Virus record (IMG/VR): IMGVR_UViG_3300041809_000571
Location: 243,841 to 307,840 of that record
Source: a virus
Length of the DNA: 64,000 bases
Reading direction: 5' to 3' (one strand)
Positions within the stretch are counted from its first letter, which is position 1. Each line of letters begins with the position of its first letter. Positions 52,844 to 64,000 of this stretch are shown here, piece after piece. The notes below the pieces were generated by a model. It saw nothing but the letters and a program-made list of their open reading frames with translations, did not search any database and had not been told where the DNA came from. A program made the translations under genes and the position numbers.

Positions 52844-53622
52844 TGAGCTATGATTACAATACCGGTCTCCAAGCGTGCCCACACACCATTTACGGGGAGA
52901 GGTATGTAATTGATACTACAGATTTTAGGACGCTTCATTATGCCGCCGACCCGGCGCTCAATATGCGTGCTCCTATCAACGGACAAGCAGTCGTGCAGAT
53001 TTTCATCAGCGGGGAAGTGGTTCAGCCCAATGACCCAACCTACGGATACTCCATCCTGTCGGACCCCAACCGGCTGGTGGGCACAACCGCCAACTTTTAC
53101 AAGATTGTCTTCAACAAGCCAGTGCGGTTTTTCATCCCGCTCATCGAAGTCAACTACATCACCTTGCAGGCGTTCTGTCTACGGTGCTCCGCCACGGGGC
53201 AACTCAATGACCTTGTGATTTCTTCCTCCGGGGCCATGCAAAAGGTGTGGGATACCAACAAGTTGACCCAGAAGGTTTTGAAGTTCGTCCTCACCTCCGT
53301 CTGTCCCTTTTATCCCCAGTTCACCTGTGCTATTCGCAGTTACATCGGGCAGAAGTTCGGGGTGACTATTACGGAAGAGGATGTATCCTCACAGATAATG
53401 GATGCTTTGCAGAGCATCAAGCAAGTACAGTCCGCCCAGCGCACCGTGCAGACTTTGAGTTTGCTGGAAATGCTTAAGGACATAGGGAATATCACCATAA
53501 CCATGCCGGACCCGACCAGCATCGTGGCCCAGTGCAGCGTGACTTCTTATGGAACTCCGGTGACCCCTTCATCGGTAACCTTCTCTATAACGTCTAACAG
53601 AAACTTAGTGGGGACTCAATGA
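52843..53622 (+). CDS. putative virion/baseplate protein
   Basis: 259-aa ORF, translationally coupled to the upstream gene. Confidence 0.4.
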   Translation: MSYDYNTGLQACPHTIYGERYVIDTTDFRTLHYAADPALNMRAPINGQAVVQIFISGEVVQPNDPTYGYSILSDPNRLVGTTANFYKIVFNKPVRFFIPLIEVNYITLQAFCLRCSATGQLNDLVISSSGAMQKVWDTNKLTQKVLKFVLTSVCPFYPQFTCAIRSYIGQKFGVTITEEDVSSQIMDALQSIKQVQSAQRTVQTLSLLEMLKDIGNITITMPDPTSIVAQCSVTSYGTPVTPSSVTFSITSNRNLVGTQ

Positions 53623-56600
53623 TACCGCCCAGCTTAGGAAACCCGCTCACGTTCATCGCCCCGGTCATCATGACCGGCAGCCCGCCCGTGCAGATTACTG
53701 CCATGTCGGTGGATAGCAGCATTCTGTCCTTTGTCGTCCAAGGGGAGATATCTTACATCCGCCTTGAGGTGTCCCTCTCCAACGAAGCACTGGTGGTATC
53801 AACCGCCTCCATTTCTGGGGGCATCGCTAACTTTTCGGGAAACGCTACCATCAATCTTGCGGGTGGGGATGTTCCCATTCAGTTTATAGCCCGCAACTAC
53901 GACCCCAGTCAAATAGGTTGGCAGGCAACCACCACCCGTGCCGTGGGGTATGTTTTTGTTGACGACAACGGACAAGTTCAAAAAGCCATAGCTTCCACCG
54001 GTTCCACGGGTAGCAACGAACCAACTGTATTCACGACTGCGGGCGCAAACGATGATTTGTCTGCTATCGTAACGGGCATCGCCATTGCTAATAATCTCCT
54101 CACGGTTACTTCAAACCATAACTTCTCCGTGGGGATGACGGTATCTTTCAACAACCTCCAGCAGGCAACATTCCTTAACGGCATATCCGTAATTGTAGCC
54201 TCGGTGACTCCCACCAGCTTTACCGCCATTTATGCTTATACGGGAAGCTATACCCAGTCCTCGCCGGAATCCGGTACCTCCGGGGTGGTCACACCTGATG
54301 GCAACGTGACGTGGCTCAATGTGGGGCCGTACACCATCTCCCCCACTGTCCAGTTTACCATCATTCCATTTCAGAGCGGGCTGGCCCCGGTCATCGGTCC
54401 TCCCTCGGGAGTAACCGCCTACAAATCGCAAGCAAGCTGTCGCATAGAGTTTCTCCAGCCGCCCTATGCAGGGGCTATCGGCACCAAGGTGATGCTCTCC
54501 ACAGACCCCGCTGGTGTTAATCCACCGTTCGTGCAGTATGGAGATGTCATCCCCCTGACTCAAATCAGCCGGGTAGCCACTCAGGTCACCACCACCAATC
54601 AGACCACCAACTATAACCCCGAGTCGGGTCAAGAGATAATCACTACCACCAACTCTGTCACCACCTACACCTACAACTACGTGGATATTCCTCCTGCTGA
54701 TGTCAATAACGTCACGCAGTTTTACGCCATGCTTTCCACAGTGGTGCAGGATACCACAGACAATGTGGTCTTTGAAAGTCAGCAGAGCGGCCCCGTGACT
54801 TGCGGATTCGTTAACCTGTCTCTCGCCAGCCCCACGGATTTCCTCGCTCTCCAGCGCCAACAGGACATCGCTTCCCGGCTTATCACCCAAATGATTAAGC
54901 TGTACCCCAGCCTTGACCTTACTCCTCGGTCGGAGATGCGGGACCTGCTCATCGACCCAGTTTCCATCGAACTCAGCAATATGAGCGTCCGGGAGTGGTT
55001 CTCTCGGTGCTCGCAATCCATCTCGGCAATAAGCCAGATAGATAATGCCAGTGGAAGTGGAGTCAGTGACCCCTTTGACTCTTCGCCCACCAAGCAACAG
55101 ATTGCCCGTGCTTATGGGTTGACTGCGGATGATACCCAGACTTTCATTGACCAGCAATTCGACCACTTGGCCCAGTCAGTGGGATTGACTCGGGGTGGGG
55201 CTACAAGCTCCGTAGTAACATTGACGTTTTACACCTATACTCAACCCACGACTACCAGCACTTTCCCCACGGGGATAATCTGCGCCACAACGGGAGATGC
55301 CTCCACACCCTCCATCACTTTCCAGACCACGGGTTCAGCATCTATAACCCCGTCTAGTGCGGCGTCCTTCTACAACCCGGTTTACGGATGGTGGGCGGTC
55401 AATGTTCCGGCCTCCTGCCAGACCACCGGCTCCAGCACCAACGTAGGGGCGGGCACCATCAATTCCATAAGCTCCAATGCCCCGGCAGGGTGGTCAGTCA
55501 CTAACCTTGCGGCGGCGGTGTTCGGAGTCGATGACGAAATCAACTCCCACTTTGCTGCTCGCATTGTCAACCGGCAGTTCACCGGAGTGGACTCAGGAAC
55601 TCGCAATGGGTATTACACCACGGCGGCAAGCACGCCGGGCATCGTGGCGGTAGAAGTAGTAGCAGCCGGGGACCTTGAGATGGTTCGTGATTGGGATAAC
55701 ATCCGGCAGAAGCATGTGTATGGATGCGTGGATGTTTATTGCCAAGGTACCTCTTCCTCCGAGGAGGACGACATTGTAGCGTTCGACTACGAGAACACTG
55801 GTGCTCCGGGAGTATACAGCACCTATCTCCCTCTCACACTTGTGTCGGCTACGAACAACCTGCTTAAGTTCCAAGTTGTTAACTCCAATTTCCAAGCCCT
55901 CAACTGGCCTTTGTACCAAGGGGTGGAGCTTATCGTTCAGGGGCTTTCCAACTCCTTCTTCCTTGATATCAGTGAAGCACAGTTCGACACCAACGGCGGT
56001 CACATCATCCTCAATCCCAGCGCCAATGCTTACTATATCTCCGGGAGTGGAGCAACACAGGTCAGAATTCCCTACCCCACGCTCGCCGCTCCAATAAGCA
56101 ACCTCGCCGCCGTGCAGGGTGTGGGATTCAACGGTACCTATCTGTTGAACGCCCGGCTCCAATCCCCGCTAACAGACACCCCCACTAATCAGCCTGTGAC
56201 CAACGTTAACTCAGTCATCGGGCAGACGGACTTTACCGGTACCATTCCCGAGGCGCTTCTTGACCTCGTACACACCTCTGACTTCCTGCTTAACGGTGGG
56301 TCTAATCAGGCGGGGGACATGGTTCAAGTGGTGTCCACTGCCACTACGCCGGTCACTGTGACCCTGACTGCCAGCACAACTACACCCGTAACCATCGGTA
56401 CCGCCATGGACATCACCGTTGACCCCAGTGGTGTTTTGGGGGATGTCCTCTCAGTCCGTTCTTCGGACCTGTCTACCCTGTATGTCAACGGGTCTGATTA
56501 CACCTTGGTGCCAGAGCCGTCTCCTTACGGCACCCCCGCAGGGCCTTATGTCGGCTGCTACGCTACCTACGGCCTTAAAACACTCACCGTGTCCAAGACC

Positions 56601-58085
56601 ATTACAGGTATCTCCATCTCCAACAACATCCTCACCGTAAACTGCATCAACAGCTTTGGAGCAGGAGCGCCTCTCACACTCGCCGGGCTTACATCCGCTT
56701 CTTTCCTCAACGGTCAGAATGTGACCGTGGCGAGTTCCAACGGAACACAGTTCACCACTGTTTACAACCACAACGATTATGCCTTTGCTTCCGATACAGG
56801 AACGGCTACAGGAAGCTCCATCCAGAACAACCAGCAAGTCGTGGTGGGTTTCAATCAGTTTATCCTGCACGAGAACCTCAGCTTCGCTTCCATGGAGCCT
56901 CAGACCCTTAATGGCAGCGTTGCAAACTCCCTTGATAACAACGGGTTTGTGTATAATACGTGGCTTCCCGAGAGTTATGGCCGGTTTGATTTGACGTTGA
57001 ATGGGGCAGCATACAATACGGATGGGACCATCAACCTCACCAACTCCACCGGACTGGTGGGAGCGGGAGTTCCTCATGACAGCCGCTATATCGAAGTCCT
57101 CTATCAGACCAGCGTCAGCCTGCCCGCCTACGAGGTCATGATTGAGAACGTGGACTTTGTTCTTAACGTGGACACGACATCCGGCGCAGTGACCATTGCC
57201 CGCAATCTCGGCACCAATGCGACCAGCCGTATCCCAGACGGTGGGCAGGTGTTGGTGTCTTACTTCTACACCGAAGCATTCACCACGGCGACCGAGTATC
57301 CTTCGTTCGTTCCCATCTTGGTTAACCAGATAAACATCACCAAGGCAGCGGGTGCGAGCGTCCTTGTCAAGGCCATGGTTGCCAATCCTATCGACATCAC
57401 TTTGACGGTGACTCTCAATAGTGGCATCTCGCCGGATACGGTAGACTCCGCTGTGCGCACCGCCATTGACCAAGCGTTGGACAGCGCTACGGGAACTCTG
57501 TATCAGTCCAGCATCGTTTCATTGGTGCAGGCGATAAGTGGCGTCAAGTCGGTGGGAATCCCCCTCATCAAGTGCGCCAAGTCAGATGGTTCTTACGATA
57601 TCGGCTTTGTCATTCCCACGGGCACGCTGTGGACTCCTCTGACGAATGACCCGGCCTTTAGCGGACAAGCGGTGCCCGCCCACAGCTTCATCACCACCGT
57701 TCCCATTCTACCGGATAGCACGGTGCCCAGTGGCGGACCCGCCGAAGCATTTGTGGGATTGCTCTACGAGGGTCAGGCTTACGCCCGTACCTCTTCAATA
57801 AGCAACTTCCTGTCTACCGCTGCCACGCCCTTGGTTTCGTCACAGAACGGTTCTTTCTACATCATCGGTACCAACGACCCCGGCCTTGCTGTGCAATACC
57901 AAAGTGCCTATGCTCAAAAGGTCATCATCACCATCCCTGCGGATACCACTTCCCCTTCTTTGAAGTCTTACTTTGTCACCTTCCAAGTCTTTGGGGAAAG
58001 CTCGGCTAAGGATGTAAATCTATCCAGCACTGAGTATTTCACAGCAGGGCGTGTGACCATCAACTATGTCACGACGGGGAGCTAA
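53619..58085 (+). CDS. giant putative tail/baseplate-associated protein (1488 aa)
   Basis: Long Thr/Ser/Val-rich ORF with no confident domain call. Confidence 0.45.
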   Translation: MIPPSLGNPLTFIAPVIMTGSPPVQITAMSVDSSILSFVVQGEISYIRLEVSLSNEALVVSTASISGGIANFSGNATINLAGGDVPIQFIARNYDPSQIGWQATTTRAVGYVFVDDNGQVQKAIASTGSTGSNEPTVFTTAGANDDLSAIVTGIAIANNLLTVTSNHNFSVGMTVSFNNLQQATFLNGISVIVASVTPTSFTAIYAYTGSYTQSSPESGTSGVVTPDGNVTWLNVGPYTISPTVQFTIIPFQSGLAPVIGPPSGVTAYKSQASCRIEFLQPPYAGAIGTKVMLSTDPAGVNPPFVQYGDVIPLTQISRVATQVTTTNQTTNYNPESGQEIITTTNSVTTYTYNYVDIPPADVNNVTQFYAMLSTVVQDTTDNVVFESQQSGPVTCGFVNLSLASPTDFLALQRQQDIASRLITQMIKLYPSLDLTPRSEMRDLLIDPVSIELSNMSVREWFSRCSQSISAISQIDNASGSGVSDPFDSSPTKQQIARAYGLTADDTQTFIDQQFDHLAQSVGLTRGGATSSVVTLTFYTYTQPTTTSTFPTGIICATTGDASTPSITFQTTGSASITPSSAASFYNPVYGWWAVNVPASCQTTGSSTNVGAGTINSISSNAPAGWSVTNLAAAVFGVDDEINSHFAARIVNRQFTGVDSGTRNGYYTTAASTPGIVAVEVVAAGDLEMVRDWDNIRQKHVYGCVDVYCQGTSSSEEDDIVAFDYENTGAPGVYSTYLPLTLVSATNNLLKFQVVNSNFQALNWPLYQGVELIVQGLSNSFFLDISEAQFDTNGGHIILNPSANAYYISGSGATQVRIPYPTLAAPISNLAAVQGVGFNGTYLLNARLQSPLTDTPTNQPVTNVNSVIGQTDFTGTIPEALLDLVHTSDFLLNGGSNQAGDMVQVVSTATTPVTVTLTASTTTPVTIGTAMDITVDPSGVLGDVLSVRSSDLSTLYVNGSDYTLVPEPSPYGTPAGPYVGCYATYGLKTLTVSKTITGISISNNILTVNCINSFGAGAPLTLAGLTSASFLNGQNVTVASSNGTQFTTVYNHNDYAFASDTGTATGSSIQNNQQVVVGFNQFILHENLSFASMEPQTLNGSVANSLDNNGFVYNTWLPESYGRFDLTLNGAAYNTDGTINLTNSTGLVGAGVPHDSRYIEVLYQTSVSLPAYEVMIENVDFVLNVDTTSGAVTIARNLGTNATSRIPDGGQVLVSYFYTEAFTTATEYPSFVPILVNQINITKAAGASVLVKAMVANPIDITLTVTLNSGISPDTVDSAVRTAIDQALDSATGTLYQSSIVSLVQAISGVKSVGIPLIKCAKSDGSYDIGFVIPTGTLWTPLTNDPAFSGQAVPAHSFITTVPILPDSTVPSGGPAEAFVGLLYEGQAYARTSSISNFLSTAATPLVSSQNGSFYIIGTNDPGLAVQYQSAYAQKVIITIPADTTSPSLKSYFVTFQVFGESSAKDVNLSSTEYFTAGRVTINYVTTGS

Positions 58086-59566
58086 TGGCGACCAATAACA
58101 ATCCCGACCTTCTCTACCTGCTACCGAGGGAATCACTCCTCCTGTTCGAGGATGCCCGTCTGCTCGGCCTGTTGCAGGCTACCGCCAATTACTATCTTCC
58201 GAGGAATGACCAGCCGCAGTGGGGATATCTCCTTCGAGTGATAGCGCAGGAGCTTGCCAAGCTCGAATACGATTATCAGTATGACATTCAGGGGATTCAA
58301 CCACAGTACCTCACTCCTCCCGATATCAAGCGCCGGGATGCCGCCTCCCTTCAAATCAAGAGTGCCTACCCCTACCCGAATCAGTTTGACAAGGGAGATT
58401 TCACCGGATTCGGGGCGTTAGACAACCCCGTGGGCTACCGGGATATGCTCGTTGACCTCATCAATGCTTACGGCATGGGGGCGACCGCCGCAGCTATCGC
58501 CGCCGTCATTTACGCCTACACGGGCAAGACCGTGCAAGTGGTGGAGCTTTACAAGCTCATCGGGCAGGGGGTTTATGACCAGTCCGACCGTAACGCCATT
58601 CAGGTATCGGTGAACGTGGGGGGAAACAATCCTCTGAACAATGTTCTCAGCCTCACCCAGTTGCAGGAGATTGTACAGAATCTATATGGGGCTATCGACC
58701 TAGCCAAGCCCGCTCATGCGGGTTTGGAGTTCACCACAGTATTCACCGAAGCGGAGAACGTCAGTCTCAACATCAATGATATCCTGCGCATTATCATCCT
58801 CCAAGTGGAAAATCCTCCGCTCAGCCCCATGCTGTGGGTAGCACCCCTGTTCGACCCCAAGCACCCCAAGACCACCTTGGCGGCATACGGCAGACATCTG
58901 ACCCCAACACTTTCCCAAGCGGATTGGGAGGCACTCTACTATGTCCCCACTTCCCCGCCAACCCTACTCCCGGCTGAGTGGAACAGTGGAATGACCTATG
59001 CTCGGGGGGCCTTGGTGCAGTACTCCACCTCCAGTCCTCCCGTTCCCAGCTACCAGATGTATCGGGCACTTAAGCGCAACACCAATCAACCGCCGACCAT
59101 TGGTGCGAGTAATGCTTATTGGAAGCTGTTGCCTTCGCCTGCGGTGTGGCAGGCATACTACAGAAACACCTTTGGCATGTACACGGTGGGTATCGCCCCA
59201 TGGACAGCACTGACCACCTATTACACCGGTCAGTTCATCATCGACCCAAACGGTAATCTCCAGATTGCTATAGTAGGGGGAGTTAGTGGAATGACCGCCC
59301 CGGCCTTCTCTACCACGCAAGGGGGAACGGTAACTGATGGTACGACCAGCCCGCCGACCGCCGTGACGTGGGAGTGCCTCGGGACCAACTATCTTGTGGA
59401 TCCCAGTCAGTGGATTCAAATCGGTTGGGTTGCTGGCGGCGTATTCACCCCCACGGGAGAGGTTGCCAATTGGAATGTCAATAACCCCATGGGCCTGCTT
59501 GCCCCGAGGGAGAACACGGTGTGGGAGGTGAAGAGCGATACGCTCAACATCTTCAACGAGGATTAG
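58085..59566 (+). CDS. putative tail protein (493 aa)
   Basis: ORF coupled to the upstream gene. Confidence 0.4.
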   Translation: MATNNNPDLLYLLPRESLLLFEDARLLGLLQATANYYLPRNDQPQWGYLLRVIAQELAKLEYDYQYDIQGIQPQYLTPPDIKRRDAASLQIKSAYPYPNQFDKGDFTGFGALDNPVGYRDMLVDLINAYGMGATAAAIAAVIYAYTGKTVQVVELYKLIGQGVYDQSDRNAIQVSVNVGGNNPLNNVLSLTQLQEIVQNLYGAIDLAKPAHAGLEFTTVFTEAENVSLNINDILRIIILQVENPPLSPMLWVAPLFDPKHPKTTLAAYGRHLTPTLSQADWEALYYVPTSPPTLLPAEWNSGMTYARGALVQYSTSSPPVPSYQMYRALKRNTNQPPTIGASNAYWKLLPSPAVWQAYYRNTFGMYTVGIAPWTALTTYYTGQFIIDPNGNLQIAIVGGVSGMTAPAFSTTQGGTVTDGTTSPPTAVTWECLGTNYLVDPSQWIQIGWVAGGVFTPTGEVANWNVNNPMGLLAPRENTVWEVKSDTLNIFNED

Positions 59567-59604
59567 TAAAACAACTTTCTACCCCTTAATCAGGGAGGAA
59601 GTTT

Positions 59605-60537
59605 ATGTTCATTTATCTTATCGTTAATCACGAGACCGGCAAATACTATGTCGGTCAGCACAAAGGAAGCAATCTTAAGAAGTATCTTCAACAGAAGTTT
59701 CACCATGCTCAGAGGGGAATTTCCGAACGGTCCCATCTTTACAATTCAATGCGAGCGCACCCAGACCCCAAGGTCTGGTCTATTCATGCTCTCCGGTCGG
59801 ATATCCAGACCCGAGAAGAACTTGATGAGACCGAGCGGGACTTCATCAAATTTCTTAGGGCAACTGACCCTGAATATGGCTACAACATCTGCCGGGGAGG
59901 GGAAGGGTTTACCGGACCGCATTCTGCCGAAACCCGTAGGAAAATATCCAAAGCTGGCAGAAAATGGGCATTGGACCCGGCTAATGAAGAAGCTAAAAAG
60001 CTTCGTATAATGCGGTTACATGAAGCAAGAAAGAAGCATAAACGCCCCTCTGAGAATAAAGTTTGCCCGGTATGTCATACTCCATTCTCTGTTCCATTTG
60101 GTTGGAAAAATAGGATATATTGCTCACGATTTTGTTCTCTTCAACGATTAAGAACCACTGAATTTGAACAAGAACGATTGAACAGTCTTCGACAATCCCT
60201 TAAACTACCCAAGTCTCGTATTAATATGTCTACGGCTCAAGCTGTTAGACGAAAAGCGGAAAGAGAACGGGGAGTGAAACCCACCCCGCATATTTGGACT
60301 CAACAGGAACGAATCATACAAGCAGAACGAATGCGGTCCGTTGGTCATAAAAATAAAGGACGTACTTTATCGGACTTTCATAAACATACTATTTCTAATG
60401 CATTAAAAGGGTTAATGCGTGATGAAAAACGGAAAAACTCTCTCGATAAAGGCAGACACACTCGTTGGCATTCCTCACGAGGAGTTGTTAGTAAAGACTG
60501 CCGATTTTGTTTGGAGGGACTTTCCAAGCCTAATTAG
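59605..60537 (+). CDS. GIY-YIG homing endonuclease with a C-terminal Zn-finger / DNA-binding region
   Basis: MFIYLIVNHETGKYYVGQ (GIY...YVG), R...E and YNICRGGEG match GIY-YIG catalytic motifs; CPVCHTPF...YCSRFCS is a zinc finger. RBS AGGGAGGAAG. The ORF is inserted between tail genes and the ART-Nudix gene. Confidence 0.7.
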   Translation: MFIYLIVNHETGKYYVGQHKGSNLKKYLQQKFHHAQRGISERSHLYNSMRAHPDPKVWSIHALRSDIQTREELDETERDFIKFLRATDPEYGYNICRGGEGFTGPHSAETRRKISKAGRKWALDPANEEAKKLRIMRLHEARKKHKRPSENKVCPVCHTPFSVPFGWKNRIYCSRFCSLQRLRTTEFEQERLNSLRQSLKLPKSRINMSTAQAVRRKAERERGVKPTPHIWTQQERIIQAERMRSVGHKNKGRTLSDFHKHTISNALKGLMRDEKRKNSLDKGRHTRWHSSRGVVSKDCRFCLEGLSKPN

Positions 60538-63069
60538 ATGAGTGTAAAGACCAAGACAGCCTACATTTCGCCGACGTTTGCTACGCTGGAGATTTCAGCG
60601 ATGCACACAGGTTTGTCTCCCACCGCTTCCATTGTCCTCGATTTAGGAATCCCCAAGTTCACCACGTTCTCCATCAAGTTCCCCATCCCCGAGGAGACCC
60701 AAGCTTTTCAACAGGTCGCCAGTGAGGCACTGGGGGTTATGTTGGATGAGATGACCGCCTTCATGATATCGGTGGGCTACAAGAAAGAAGTCATCGCCAA
60801 GATTTATGCCCTCACGCTAGCCTGCTACAAGGATTTGGTCGCCAATGACCACCCGGAGAATCGGGAGAAGGACCCCAGTATTGGCTCCGTGCGGGGAGAG
60901 TTTCAAATCCCTGCGGACTTCATCAATGAGACCCAGCGGTATGTGGTGACAGCGGGTAAGAAGGTAGACCGCAGCCCCCGGCAGCGCCGGGTGGAGATTG
61001 TCCCCAAGCGTCCGGTCAACCCCTCCAAGAACGATGTTCTCAAGGCTATCCGGCGCTATCGCTTCCAAAGCATTAAGAGTCAGCCGTTCCCCTTATACCT
61101 CGTGGTCTATGACAACATGGGACAACCCAAGGGTACGCTGACACTGGGGCCGGGCTTCCACAATGAGCTTTTGAAGATGCAGTACAAAAAGAAAGGGGCT
61201 GACCAAGACCCCAACCAAGCCTACAAAGACGCTGTAAGGGCCGGTGGAGGCGTTTGGAAGGGCATCGGAGAGAACGGTCTTGGCGGGTGGATGGTTTATT
61301 TCGATAACGCTGCTACCCGGTCAACCCTCACTTTGGATACCACGGAAGTGACGCCCGAGGCGGTCGCAGCCAAAATTAAGTTGAATCAGGATGCCACGGA
61401 TGAACGAAGGAAGAAAATGGCCGGTCAGTGGGGACCTCGTTCCTATGATGGTGATTCTATTCACGATATATTAGACAGGCATCGGCCCGGATATGACGAC
61501 GTGGGAGACCGGGAGCATTTGGGTTTTGATGAACCCATCCCCGAGGAGCAGTTGCCGTCCCTGTACAAAGAGATTGAGGCACTGGACCTCAGCCAGCCGG
61601 ACATGATGCAGAACTACGTGGGCGTGGTAGTGTTTCTCATAGAGCATGGCACGCTGGTCCCCGATACTCTTCGCCACAAAGCGGCAGAGCTTGCCACGGC
61701 ACTTCTCACCGGCACCAAAGGCGGCGGGCCGGGCGGAGCCGACGAGCGGGGGTGGAAGCTTTGGAAAGACCCAGAGGAGCGCAAGCAGCGGCTTCGGGAG
61801 GAGATTGCCCTCTTGAGCAAGGGTTCTCTCGCCAAGGAAGCACGTTTCCTCCGCATTGATGAGATGCAGGCTTGGGGGACGGGCAAACAGGATGAGTATT
61901 ATGCTCAACACCCGGAGCTTGGCAGTCCGGGAAAGAAGCTGAATCTCATGGTCACCGAGCCGGACGGAACCTCCACTCCGTTAGCTAAAGCGGTGAAGGC
62001 GGACTACGGCCCTGACGCCCGGCGCTGTCCTGAGTGTGGCTCCTCCAATGTTCATACGGTCCCGCACGTGCGAGGCGATGTGACGCATTGTGACGATTGC
62101 CAGCACGAGGCCCACACCTCGTGGTTTAAGGGAGCGGCGGTTCACCCGGAGTATGGGGATAACACCGCTGCCGTAGAAGCCAACCGGCCTTTAGTCGCCA
62201 AGACAAACCTCGAACTTGCGGCGAAGGAGGGTATTGAAACTAAGGGGGAAAGCCTTGTTCTTTACCATGGCACCCGGAGCGCAATCAAGATACGGAATTC
62301 CGGGGTATTTCCCATCGGCACGTACTTTGCCACGACGGAAAAGGAAGCATGGCAGTGGGCTTTGTCGGCTTCCCCGCAGAAGAACCGGGCGGTAGTGCTG
62401 AAAGTCTTGGTGCCAGCGGGCACGGTGTTCCCCAGTGGAGGTGGTGTGAGGTATTTCAGCACTAACGAGCAGATTCCCTACCGTCCCATAGGGGAGCCTA
62501 AGACCGCCGACTATTACGACGAGCAGGGTTTCTGGGCCGGTGAGGGCGGCGGAGCCTCGGGGATTCTCCCGGTCTGCACTACAACGGGTCGTATTTGCTT
62601 TGCATGGCGGTCTCCCGAGGTCCAACAGGGTTCCTGCTGGGGAACTATCGGCGGAGCCATCCAGAGGGGTATGCAGCCCGGTGAGAGCGCCAAAGAGGAA
62701 CTCTGGGAGGAGACGGGGTACAGCGGAGGCATGACCCTCCATCCCGCCTACGTGTTCCAAAGTGGGACATTTCGTTACTTTAACTTCATCGGTGAGACGG
62801 CACAGGAATTCGACTTCCAGCCTCAAAGTGATGCCGTATGGGAGACCGAAGGATTAGAGTGGTTTACACTCCCGCAGGTCCGGGAGTACATGGCAAAAAG
62901 TCCCCATGAGTTTCACAGTGGGGTAATAGCCCTGTTCAAGAATTCGGGGAAGCTTATCGAGCAGATTTGTGCGAAGGCAGCCCCCAAGAAGGGAAAAGGC
63001 GATGGAAAACCAAGCAAGGTTAGAGAGTCCAGCACTGGTAAAGCTCCGGGAGCAGGCGGCACAGCTTAA
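60538..63069 (+). CDS. Multidomain protein: N-terminal unknown region, Zn-ribbon, PARP/diphtheria-toxin-like (H-Y-E class) ADP-ribosyltransferase domain, C-terminal Nudix-like domain
   Basis: LVLYHGTRSAIKIRNSGVF (the H-G-T/S motif of H-Y-E ARTs), GTYFATTEKEA (the Y-F-A motif, compare PARP GIYFADMVSKSANY) and VRYFSTNEQIPY (compare PARP YNEYIVY catalytic Glu) lie at about 62230..62500. The Nudix-like box GGAIQRGMQPGESAKEELWEETGY (REUxEExGU-like, R replaced by E) lies at 62651..62722, and the Zn-ribbon CPECGSS...HCDDCQ at about 62020..62115. Confidence 0.5.
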   Translation: MSVKTKTAYISPTFATLEISAMHTGLSPTASIVLDLGIPKFTTFSIKFPIPEETQAFQQVASEALGVMLDEMTAFMISVGYKKEVIAKIYALTLACYKDLVANDHPENREKDPSIGSVRGEFQIPADFINETQRYVVTAGKKVDRSPRQRRVEIVPKRPVNPSKNDVLKAIRRYRFQSIKSQPFPLYLVVYDNMGQPKGTLTLGPGFHNELLKMQYKKKGADQDPNQAYKDAVRAGGGVWKGIGENGLGGWMVYFDNAATRSTLTLDTTEVTPEAVAAKIKLNQDATDERRKKMAGQWGPRSYDGDSIHDILDRHRPGYDDVGDREHLGFDEPIPEEQLPSLYKEIEALDLSQPDMMQNYVGVVVFLIEHGTLVPDTLRHKAAELATALLTGTKGGGPGGADERGWKLWKDPEERKQRLREEIALLSKGSLAKEARFLRIDEMQAWGTGKQDEYYAQHPELGSPGKKLNLMVTEPDGTSTPLAKAVKADYGPDARRCPECGSSNVHTVPHVRGDVTHCDDCQHEAHTSWFKGAAVHPEYGDNTAAVEANRPLVAKTNLELAAKEGIETKGESLVLYHGTRSAIKIRNSGVFPIGTYFATTEKEAWQWALSASPQKNRAVVLKVLVPAGTVFPSGGGVRYFSTNEQIPYRPIGEPKTADYYDEQGFWAGEGGGASGILPVCTTTGRICFAWRSPEVQQGSCWGTIGGAIQRGMQPGESAKEELWEETGYSGGMTLHPAYVFQSGTFRYFNFIGETAQEFDFQPQSDAVWETEGLEWFTLPQVREYMAKSPHEFHSGVIALFKNSGKLIEQICAKAAPKKGKGDGKPSKVRESSTGKAPGAGGTA

Positions 63070-63739
63070 TGCCGCTGCACGGGGAAAGTGGGGGGAGAAA
63101 GTTCCTCCTCCGATAAAGAAGGGGAACATCACCGTCTACCGCCCGGACACCGGAGAGGTCCTTTACTCCGAGCGCAATATCATCACGTCCATATCCAGTT
63201 GGCTCTTTGCCCAGTTCATGGCGTGTGCCTCCCCCTTGAACCTCTCCCCACCACAGACTCAACCGGTCAGCATCGCTGCTACAGAACCGGCGTGGGGCGT
63301 CTGGGGGTTGGCTCTGGGCGCTGGCAGCCCCACGTGGGCACCAACTACTCAACCCGTGGAAACGGCCACTCAGGTAGAACTCATTCAACCGCTCGCCCGT
63401 GTGCAGTTGAGCCGGGTGAACTTCGTCACTCAGGACAGCAGCGGTAACTGGAACCCGCAGGCGGTGTTGACCACCAACGTGGAGTTTCAGACCACGGTGA
63501 ACAGCACGACCAACAACATCAATCAAGGCATCCGGGAAATGGGCCTCATTGGCGGCGGTATCGCCAACATGGGCAGCTATACCATGTTGACTGCTCCATA
63601 CTTCAACGGCAACCCGTCTTCCTATGCCACGGTGCAGGCCAGTCAGCAAACGGTCATTCTTTTGAATTACAAGACTTTGCCGCCACTGCTTCTGCCGCCC
63701 GGCATCGACATCATTTTCAGTTGGATATTCCAATTCTAG
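63002..63739 (+). CDS. hypothetical protein
   Basis: Start MENQARLES follows AAGGGAAAAGG; the listed longer ORF from 62969 overlaps the upstream gene. Confidence 0.35.
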   Translation: MENQARLESPALVKLREQAAQLNAAARGKWGEKVPPPIKKGNITVYRPDTGEVLYSERNIITSISSWLFAQFMACASPLNLSPPQTQPVSIAATEPAWGVWGLALGAGSPTWAPTTQPVETATQVELIQPLARVQLSRVNFVTQDSSGNWNPQAVLTTNVEFQTTVNSTTNNINQGIREMGLIGGGIANMGSYTMLTAPYFNGNPSSYATVQASQQTVILLNYKTLPPLLLPPGIDIIFSWIFQF

Positions 63740-63748
63740 GAGATTCAT

Positions 63749-64000
63749 GGGGAACATCTTAGCGGTGCAGTTGGGAGAATGGCAGGAGTTGTCGGATGGC
63801 GTAGTTGACACCGGCTATCGTGTCGTTCTCTCTACGCAACGTGTCCAGATGAATGTTCAGACCACCACTTTTTGGGGACAACAGATTCTCATGGCGACTG
63901 GCTCCCCATGGGGGGTGGGAACCGTGGACATTGGCTCCCTTTCGGTCATCGCCCAGTTTAACCTGTTCCTCAATCAGTTCGTAGGCAAGCGCCGGGGATG
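63749..64000 (+). CDS. hypothetical protein, 5' partial (continues beyond window end)
   Basis: ATG follows TAGGAGATTC. The reading frame is open from 63749 (MGNILAVQLGEW) to the window end with no stop; the ORF track omits it because it lacks a stop. Confidence 0.35.

Follow-up and report, generated by a model that had tools for sequence, protein, structure and literature searches.

In a stretch of 64,000 nucleotides (nt) from the IMG/VR virus record IMGVR_UViG_3300041809_000571 (positions 243,841 to 307,840 of that record; the whole stretch is referred to below as the window), we identified a gene (60538..63069, + strand) for a polyvalent-type multi-domain protein of 843 amino acids (aa). 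In this protein, a predicted minimal ADP-ribosyltransferase (ART) domain of the H-Y-E type and a Nudix hydrolase domain are attached to additional conserved modules. The source is a 364,142-bp metagenomic contig, which represents a giant uncultured phage (about 364 kb). The protein has 19 homologues, which have in common an N-terminal module, a middle region and a C-terminal Nudix domain, and it combines domains in a new way but belongs to the described class of phage polyvalent effectors; it is not a new kind of system. With moderate confidence, we regard it as a multi-effector that would be made late and delivered with the virion, and whose ART and Nudix domains would act independently of each other on the chemistry of nicotinamide adenine dinucleotide (NAD+) and ADP-ribose.

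The open reading frame (ORF) has an ATG start and comprises 843 aa plus the stop codon; all features described below are on the same strand. Every motif quoted for this ORF in the initial annotation was found in place, including LYHGTRS (aa 575-581), GTYFATTEKEA (aa 594-604), STNEQIPY (aa 641-648) and AKEELWEETGY (aa 718-728). The source gene caller had placed the start at M22 (60601). However, residues upstream of M22 (S11, P12, L17 and E18) are kept in the alignment of the 19 homologues, and the ATG at 60538 is therefore preferred. A megablast search with positions 58000-64000 of the window gave no match in GenBank phages, and an NCBIfam scan gave nothing meaningful.

A predicted minimal ADP-ribosyltransferase domain

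The ART domain (aa 543-652, 62164..62493; designated mini-ART) is a distant relative of ART-PolyVal (PF18760). We carried out an exhaustive HMMER search of 1.84 billion cluster representatives with aa 485-660 as the query (expectation value, E<=1e-3) and recovered 30 proteins, nearly all of which matched aa ~540-655. Two of them (P0043 and P0047) were weak multi-stretch matches to short pieces of this region only. Among the relatives of mini-ART, the smallest were stand-alone proteins (95-142 aa) and the largest were giants of up to 2,627 aa, and in the giant proteins the domain co-occurred with SprT-like, canonical ART-PolyVal and PBECR5 domains.

A multiple alignment of 25 family members revealed the residues expected of an H-Y-E active site. 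The L-x-H-G-T motif of strand 1 was invariant, including H577 (codon 62266..62268), G578 and T579 (25/25), and H577 aligned with the HGT histidine of Tpt1 (7kw8). Position 596 in strand 2 (Y596, codon 62323..62325) was aromatic in 24 of the 25 sequences, 16 of which had Tyr. A second aromatic residue, W607, is located 11 residues after Y596, and this position was also aromatic in 24 sequences. In a comparison of the family profile with PDB sequences, positions 596 and 607 aligned with two tyrosines of the exotoxin-A-like toxin 9g7o (LYIASDPEVAYGYA). The residues of Tpt1 and of this toxin that pair with H577 and Y596, respectively, are catalytic. The same spacing of 11 residues between the aromatics occurs in PARP1, exotoxin A and diphtheria toxin. 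The predicted catalytic glutamate, E644 (codon 62467..62469), is part of an NE motif after the fifth strand; it was Glu in 22/25 sequences, with two further members having E one position later, and N643 was present in 20/25. In addition, Ala604 was invariant and Tyr639 was found in 22/25 members.

The structure of the domain was also predicted. A full-length AlphaFold2 (AF2) model built with 20 sequences had a predicted local distance difference test (pLDDT) score below 50 over aa 524-673, whereas AF2 with a dedicated family alignment gave a pLDDT of 93.1 and a predicted template modeling (pTM) score of 0.86 for mini-ART. The latter model has the split beta-sheet fold of ARTs, with H577 in a strand formed by aa 572-579, Y596 in a strand formed by aa 596-598 and E644 directly after the fifth strand (aa 639-642). 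The catalytic triad of ARTs sits on strands 1, 2 and 5 (PMC9825190), and the modeled positions of H577, Y596 and E644 fit this arrangement. The active site is not of the R-S-E type found in T4 Alt and VIP2-like enzymes, as strand 1 provides H577 and not R and the motifs are H-G-T, Y-F-A and N-E. Nor does it have the H-Y-D configuration of PF18760, since the third position is E644 of the N-E motif. A solved pre-ejectosome chain (9k3a_B) has a fold similar to that of mini-ART.

The relationship with ART-PolyVal was further examined by profile comparison. Mini-ART matched PF18760 with 16.4 bits against a gathering threshold of 31.2 (E 0.016, profile positions 2-54 of 140), and two relatives, P0021 and P0022, scored 18.8 and 20.4 bits, respectively. 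When the mini-ART profile was aligned by hhalign with five canonical ART-PolyVal copies, the probability was 96.2% (E 2.6e-9) over 59 columns extending from strand 1 to strand 3. These comparisons indicate that mini-ART is a relative of PF18760 and not a member by the curated criterion of Pfam. The two families share H-G-T in strand 1, an aromatic residue in strand 2 and matching helices, members of both are found in phage multi-domain proteins whose genes accompany virion genes, and canonical copies are present in the same giant proteins as mini-ART (P0029 and P0035). However, mini-ART is shorter (about 110 aa compared to about 140-200 aa) and does not have the long insert and the C-terminal YDG...[DE]Y.VF.P.Q[IV]K part of ART-PolyVal. 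The third catalytic position also differs, being E in N-E here and aspartate in that family according to the description in PMC5512222.

No individually significant match was found when the mini-ART profile was searched against PDB sequences (best E 0.24). The search is informative only because eight of the 10 best sub-threshold matches were ARTs. A tblastn search of phages with mini-ART alone gave no match. Other minimal ARTs are distant, with TreTu (7zhl), KptA/Tpt1 (9ld3) and AcrIF11 (6kyf) being 13-16% identical to mini-ART in sequence; catalytic residues of Tpt1 are of the H-H-h type, and TreTu has an atypical R-based site (PMC9825190). Overall, the family alignment, the hhalign result and the confident AF2 model bear out the assignment of this region to the ART superfamily with an H-Y-E type signature, which the initial annotation had made from motifs, and they identify it as a putative minimal H-Y-E ART.

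The Nudix domain and its subfamily

The Nudix hydrolase domain (aa 660-812, 62515..62973) matched PF00293 over aa 674-788 with 32.2 bits (gathering score 21.1) and also phrog_1198. The full-length AF2 model was confident over this domain, and Foldseek searches of PDB and BFVD with this model returned only Nudix-superfamily folds, with E values down to 4e-5 and 5e-8, respectively, among which no single Nudix specificity group stood out. A Nudix box had been reported to follow the ART signature directly; a real Nudix domain does follow the ART, but its box starts 62 residues after E644.

The box extends from G706 to Y728 (62653..62721) and reads G x5 M x7 E E L x E E x G Y in the family alignment, compared to the consensus GX5EX7REUXEEXGU. 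Residues G706, E721, L722, E724, E725, G727 and Y728 fit the consensus, and E721, E724, E725, G727 and Y728 were invariant across the family. The two departures are at the first E of the consensus, which is replaced by an invariant Met (M712), and at the R, which is E720 here and H, E or K in the family. The metal-binding EUXEE core is intact. Because the E-to-M and R-to-H/E/K changes occur together, as would be expected for a replaced salt bridge, the swap of the Glu-Arg pair at both positions may be a structural variant rather than an inactivation.

The best solved relative of the family Nudix profile was the ADP-ribose pyrophosphatase of T. thermophilus (E 1.7e-6), followed by the ADP-sugar pyrophosphatase NUDT5 and Dcp2 (E about 0.008). 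ADP-ribose pyrophosphatases have a signature proline about 15 residues after the Nudix box. This proline is not kept in the family: S-P-G of 1v8i aligned with Q-S-G (S742) of the window protein, and family members have S or D at this position. A nucleoside-diphosphate-X compound of the ADP-ribose or NAD type is the probable substrate, an assignment that we consider a lead and not a result because the signature proline is absent. It is supported by the location of a stand-alone subfamily member (L007 5257-7435), which is encoded two genes after an NAD kinase gene and near genes for phosphoribosyl pyrophosphate (PRPP) synthetase and RNA ligase. The 108-kb contig with this member additionally codes for a B-family DNA polymerase and a DnaB-type helicase.

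Searching with a profile of the Nudix region (E<=1e-10) detected 50 further proteins of 92-278 aa, which were stand-alone or nearly so, and PF18760 was found in none of them. The nearest phage relatives of the subfamily were Nudix proteins of jumbo phages (BcepSauron and phiRSL1). Some members (P0080-P0082; L008 7001-7822) were fused with a phospholipase-A2-like domain (PF08398).

Proposed scaffold modules and optional cassettes

The N-terminal conserved domain (aa 1-221, 60538..61200), a proposed anchor or scaffold, showed the highest conservation within the family, with a mean column identity of 75%. It had no significant match in Pfam, PHROG, PDB-profile or Foldseek searches, the best being a borderline PDB-profile match (E 0.01). 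It was, however, 35% identical (E 2e-31) to the C-terminal part (aa 479-673) of gp224 of Tunturiibacter phage Tunturi_5. The middle region (aa 222-487, 61201..61998) consists of a small beta domain and a helical domain, with a pLDDT of about 70-90 in the full-length model and invariant AGQWG.RS.D.D..HD and GFDEP motifs; it had no PDB profile match, and Foldseek of the full model against PDB and BFVD gave nothing for it beyond the Nudix-superfamily matches mentioned above. The protein ends in a low-complexity tail rich in Lys and Gly (aa 813-843, 62974..63066), which is variable among homologues and had a pLDDT below 50.

Insertions were concentrated in five hot spots between the conserved parts, after aa 137, 221, 289, 431 and 488. 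In the window protein, site 488 is occupied by a lineage-specific cassette of 166 aa (aa 488-655, 61999..62502), which carries mini-ART and, upstream of it, a four-cysteine zinc ribbon (C497, C500, C518 and C521; 62026..62100). The ribbon was recognized by its CxxC...CxxC pattern and several zinc-ribbon families of Pfam matched it only weakly (E 0.02-0.8). This cassette was present in 3 of the 19 homologues, namely the window protein, an identical copy (P0001) and P0002. P0003, whose aligned columns are ~93% identical to those of the window protein, does not contain it, and neither do 15 other homologues. A different ART was detected in P0005, in which a Pfam-significant ART-PolyVal domain (36.4 bits) is inserted at another site of the scaffold (221). 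Inserts of P0009, P0011/12, P0015 and P0017 could not be shown to be further ART types, as Pfam detected nothing in them and hhalign to mini-ART gave probabilities of 0.2-13%.

Given the presence of the cassette in only 3/19 homologues and the 50 Nudix relatives without PF18760, Nudix is the constant enzymatic cargo of the scaffold and the ART is an optional addition. This distribution, both in the family and in the Nudix subfamily, led us to reject an obligate ART-Nudix pairing as the default reading, and the dedicated pair of writer and eraser suggested by the initial annotation is not sustained.

Several features of the inserts and modules were also observed. Residues A-D-Y occur at both ends of the cassette (61999-62007 and 62506-62514), unrelated cassettes in P0002, P0005 and P0008 open with a similar ADY[DG]PDA linker, and T-A flanks the inserts at site 137. 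Such repeats suggest that cassettes may be exchanged by recombination in short conserved linkers. Modules are also permuted within the family: the small beta domain (window aa about 234-285; GGG.F.G...VYF.NP...STLVL...TPEAV) is located after the helical middle domain in P0014 and P0015 and not before it. P0019, encoded on a 342-kb contig, has zinc-finger repeats of the DnaJ type (CxxCxGxG) in the middle region, and beyond the GGAVKRG motif its Nudix sequence becomes abruptly divergent, a pattern expected from a frameshift or from decay.

Association with the baseplate gene block and comparison with Tunturi_5

The gene belongs to a conserved block of baseplate genes. In four contigs, the same order was found: a giant He_PIG protein, two small genes, a Baseplate_J-like protein, a ~480-aa protein, the gene studied here and a ~240-aa virion structural protein. 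The initial annotation had placed the gene at the end of the structural module; it is indeed located among tail and baseplate genes, but inside the baseplate block, two genes after the Baseplate_J protein.

The closest cultured relative is Tunturi_5, a 309-kb myovirus of Acidobacteriota (PMC11924767). Its gp224 gene occupies the genome position equivalent to that of the studied gene, next to gp222, and the gp224 protein ends in the domain that resembles the N-terminal module. As this module is found beside the same structural gene in both phages while the cargo differs (GNATs in one, ART and Nudix in the other), it may serve as an anchor with exchangeable cargo.

Pfam and PHROGs identified two GNAT domains, a weak ParB-like match and the scaffold-like C-terminal domain in gp224 (L006 10567-12633), which is annotated as "portal protein". 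A link between the N-terminal module and portal proteins by way of this annotation was considered and rejected, since no portal domain was found by these searches. The adjacent gp225 (L006 6771-10559), annotated as "MutT/NUDIX hydrolase", contains a nucleoside deoxyribosyltransferase-like domain and two copies of ART-PolyVal, and no Nudix domain. Both annotations look wrong.

Another Tunturi_5 protein, gp273 (PP885688.1, 1,489 aa, annotated as "MutT/NUDIX hydrolase"), resembles the window protein in that a Nudix domain of the same subfamily (55% identity) is fused to ARTs. However, gp273 has its Nudix domain close to the N-terminus, with three canonical ART-PolyVal copies and GNATs after it; scaffold modules, zinc ribbon and mini-ART are all missing, and the gene is in another neighborhood, next to an InPase/GP88 "minor head protein". 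The architecture of gp273 is not discussed in the paper describing Tunturi_5 (PMC11924767).

Relationship to known phage effectors

Polyvalent proteins, described in 2017, are multi-domain proteins delivered with the virion, in which ART is reported as the commonest modifying domain (PMC5512222). The window protein shows the features of this class. It has an ART and a Nudix domain, i.e., two effector-type domains, along with at least two further conserved modules. Its domains are shared in different combinations, mini-ART with SprT-like, ART-PolyVal and PBECR5 domains, the N-terminal module with GNATs (gp224), and Nudix with ART-PolyVal and GNAT domains (gp273). Finally, it is encoded with virion genes, having a fixed place in the Baseplate_J-containing block of four contigs.

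A useful functional model is T4 Alt, an ART that is synthesized late, travels in the phage particle and acts when infection begins, as summarized in PMC5512222. Alt differs in belonging to the R-S-E clade and in being packaged in the head, whereas mini-ART is of the H-Y-E type, has its gene in the baseplate block and is a putative virion component. The protein also resembles T4 NudE-like virion Nudix proteins. These either have genes located among late or virion genes or are fused to virion proteins, and PMC9503650 predicts ADP-ribose- or NAD-type compounds as their substrates early in infection. The subfamily described here differs from them by an unusual Nudix box, in which M replaces E and the R position is taken by H, E or K. 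Another related group is formed by jumbo-phage "toggles", in which an NAD+-consuming domain and Nudix are likewise present in one polypeptide (PMC7824862); their partners are SIR2, SLOG and ARC domains making soluble signals, and the available text of that study mentions no ART partner.

The initial annotation regarded an ART fused to a Nudix enzyme as a type of effector that had not been described in phages. This view is too strong, as the protein was preceded by the polyvalent class (PMC5512222), by virion-associated phage Nudix and ART domains described in 2022 together with virion-linked Macro and NADAR proteins (PMC9503650), by the joining of NAD+-using domains with Nudix, Macro or NADAR in jumbo phages, described in 2021 (PMC7824862), and by gp273 of Tunturi_5. 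An explicit ART-Nudix fusion was not found in the available text of the literature on phage polyvalent and Nudix proteins, although the combination is present in the deposited genome of Tunturi_5. The novelty is modest but real in three respects: a compact ART family missed by current models, a mini-ART cassette inserted beside Nudix in a baseplate-linked scaffold with defined hot spots, and the repeated joining of ART and Nudix in this group of phages.

Proposed function and alternative explanations

Based on the observed domain identities, conservation of catalytic residues, cassette nature of the ART and synteny, we infer the following course of events. The N-terminal and middle modules would serve as a scaffold, which has a constant place in the baseplate gene block of this clade of jumbo phages and to which the enzymatic cargo would be attached, with Nudix as a constant part and the zinc ribbon/mini-ART cassette as an addition in this phage lineage. 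The protein would be made late together with baseplate proteins, tied to baseplate assembly by its N-terminal scaffold module and thereby incorporated into the virion, and would enter the cell at infection. Mini-ART may then mono-ADP-ribosylate a host macromolecule using NAD+, and Nudix may independently hydrolyze a molecule derived from NAD+ or ADP-ribose, e.g., free ADP-ribose, an immune signal or an NAD cap.

Several observations weigh against this proposal. Neither a MuF or portal domain or fusion nor a packaging signal was found in the protein by Pfam and PHROG scans, and the scaffold modules match no known structural protein by PDB profile or Foldseek. Mini-ART is below the PF18760 threshold and without the C-terminal half of that family, and the two departures of the Nudix box from the consensus make an altered or weak activity possible. 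Moreover, ARTs joined this Nudix subfamily at least three separate times (the window type, P0005 and gp273), which could reflect coupling rather than independence. The first two of these points are what would be expected if the protein were not injected at all and were instead an enzyme that acts late in the cytoplasm or, bound to the baseplate, outside the cell or at its surface, the location of its gene reflecting co-expression only. Such an enzyme could, for example, modify phage proteins or process NAD-capped RNA late in infection, and T4 NudE has been reported as an NAD-RNA decapping enzyme (bioRxiv 10.1101/2024.04.04.588121). We consider this rather unlikely in view of the fixed gene position in the baseplate block of four contigs and its equivalent in Tunturi_5, the occurrence of mini-ART relatives in polyvalent proteins and the similar fold of the pre-ejectosome chain 9k3a_B. 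The Nudix box without the first E and the R, and an ART of only about 110 aa that is below the Pfam threshold, might also indicate that one or both domains are catalytically dead remnants with a binding or structural role in a baseplate protein. This is very improbable, however, as H577-G-T is invariant, E644 is present in 22/25 sequences and the aromatics are kept among 25 divergent members that include stand-alone proteins of about 95-140 aa, while E721, E724 and E725 of Nudix are invariant and the paired changes in the box fit a replaced structural salt bridge better than lost catalysis.

Repeated joining of ART-type domains to the Nudix subfamily bears on a coupled function, in which the ART would modify a target and Nudix would either cut the attached ADP-ribose at its pyrophosphate, so that a phosphoribosyl mark would remain that resists host erasers of the macrodomain or ARH type, or limit self-modification by the ART or its toxicity. 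The insertion of the cassette immediately before the Nudix domain is consistent with such coupling, and Legionella SidE proteins, in which a mono-ART and a phosphodiesterase are present in one protein, provide a precedent. The logic of a transferase and a pyrophosphate-cleaving enzyme within one effector is similar, although the window protein has no homology to the SidE phosphodiesterase and the action of its ART and Nudix on one substrate would be hypothetical. Furthermore, Nudix hydrolases can convert protein-linked ADP-ribose to phosphoribose in vitro (PMC4680915). On the other hand, most scaffold homologues have Nudix without a detectable ART, the 50 proteins of the Nudix subfamily are largely stand-alone and free of PF18760, the nearest solved Nudix relatives act on free ADP-ribose or ADP-sugars, and polyvalent proteins as characterized in PMC5512222 typically combine unrelated activities. 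Coupling is therefore unlikely in our opinion, and it is improbable that ART and Nudix act in sequence on one host protein or nucleic acid as a virion-delivered counterpart of SidE chemistry, with their repeated joining selected and not accidental. It is similarly doubtful that the two domains form a small-molecule module, in which mini-ART would be an NADase or would make a soluble ADP-ribose derivative and Nudix would degrade the product, draining NAD+ or toggling or quenching ADP-ribose-based immune signaling. This possibility is raised by jumbo-phage fusions of SIR2, SLOG and ARC to Nudix, Macro or NADAR, which were interpreted as toggles (as presented in PMC7824862), by the statement in PMC9503650 that some ART clades are NADases, and by the similarity of the Nudix domain to ADP-ribose pyrophosphatases as its closest relatives.

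Independent action of ART and Nudix after delivery with the virion, which we consider more likely, would add a further member to the known arsenal directed against host NAD+/ADP-ribose biology, whereas ART and Nudix acting in sequence would be a new type of phage-inflicted modification. Mini-ART belongs to a previously unmodeled H-Y-E family of ~110 aa whose members are either stand-alone proteins or parts of giant phage effectors, and which annotation pipelines miss because it is below the Pfam threshold. The protein is also a clear example of how jumbo phages build effectors, with a scaffold tied to the baseplate block and enzyme cassettes swapped at a handful of hot spots. The cultured pair of Tunturi_5 and Tunturiibacter could be used to test virion delivery of enzymes directed at NAD+ and ADP-ribose.

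Neighboring genes

Genes upstream of the studied gene on the same strand code for an SLT transglycosylase protein, a protein of 1,912 aa containing seven Ig-like repeats of the He_PIG type and a Baseplate_J-like protein of 1488 aa (53619..58085). The latter matched PF04865 with 54.4 bits and was 45.7% identical to the "baseplate wedge subunit" of Tunturi_5.

The downstream gene (62969..63739) encodes a virion structural protein that is 39% identical (E 9e-39) to gp222 of Tunturi_5, annotated as "virion structural protein", and that has a weak BW3TFN match. When read from the listed GTG, this ORF overlaps the studied gene by 101 nt. Its true start is uncertain because the similarity to gp222 begins only at aa 51 and the source gene caller used a start at 63356.

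Immediately upstream of the studied gene is a gene for a homing-type endonuclease with GIY-YIG and NUMOD3 domains (59605..60537; Pfam and PHROG), which ends one base before the studied gene and is optional at this spot. A similar gene was present at the same spot in contig L002 and none was found in L005. With a guanine-plus-cytosine content of 43.7%, compared to 53.6% for the window, the endonuclease gene looks like a mobile insertion beside a conserved gene.

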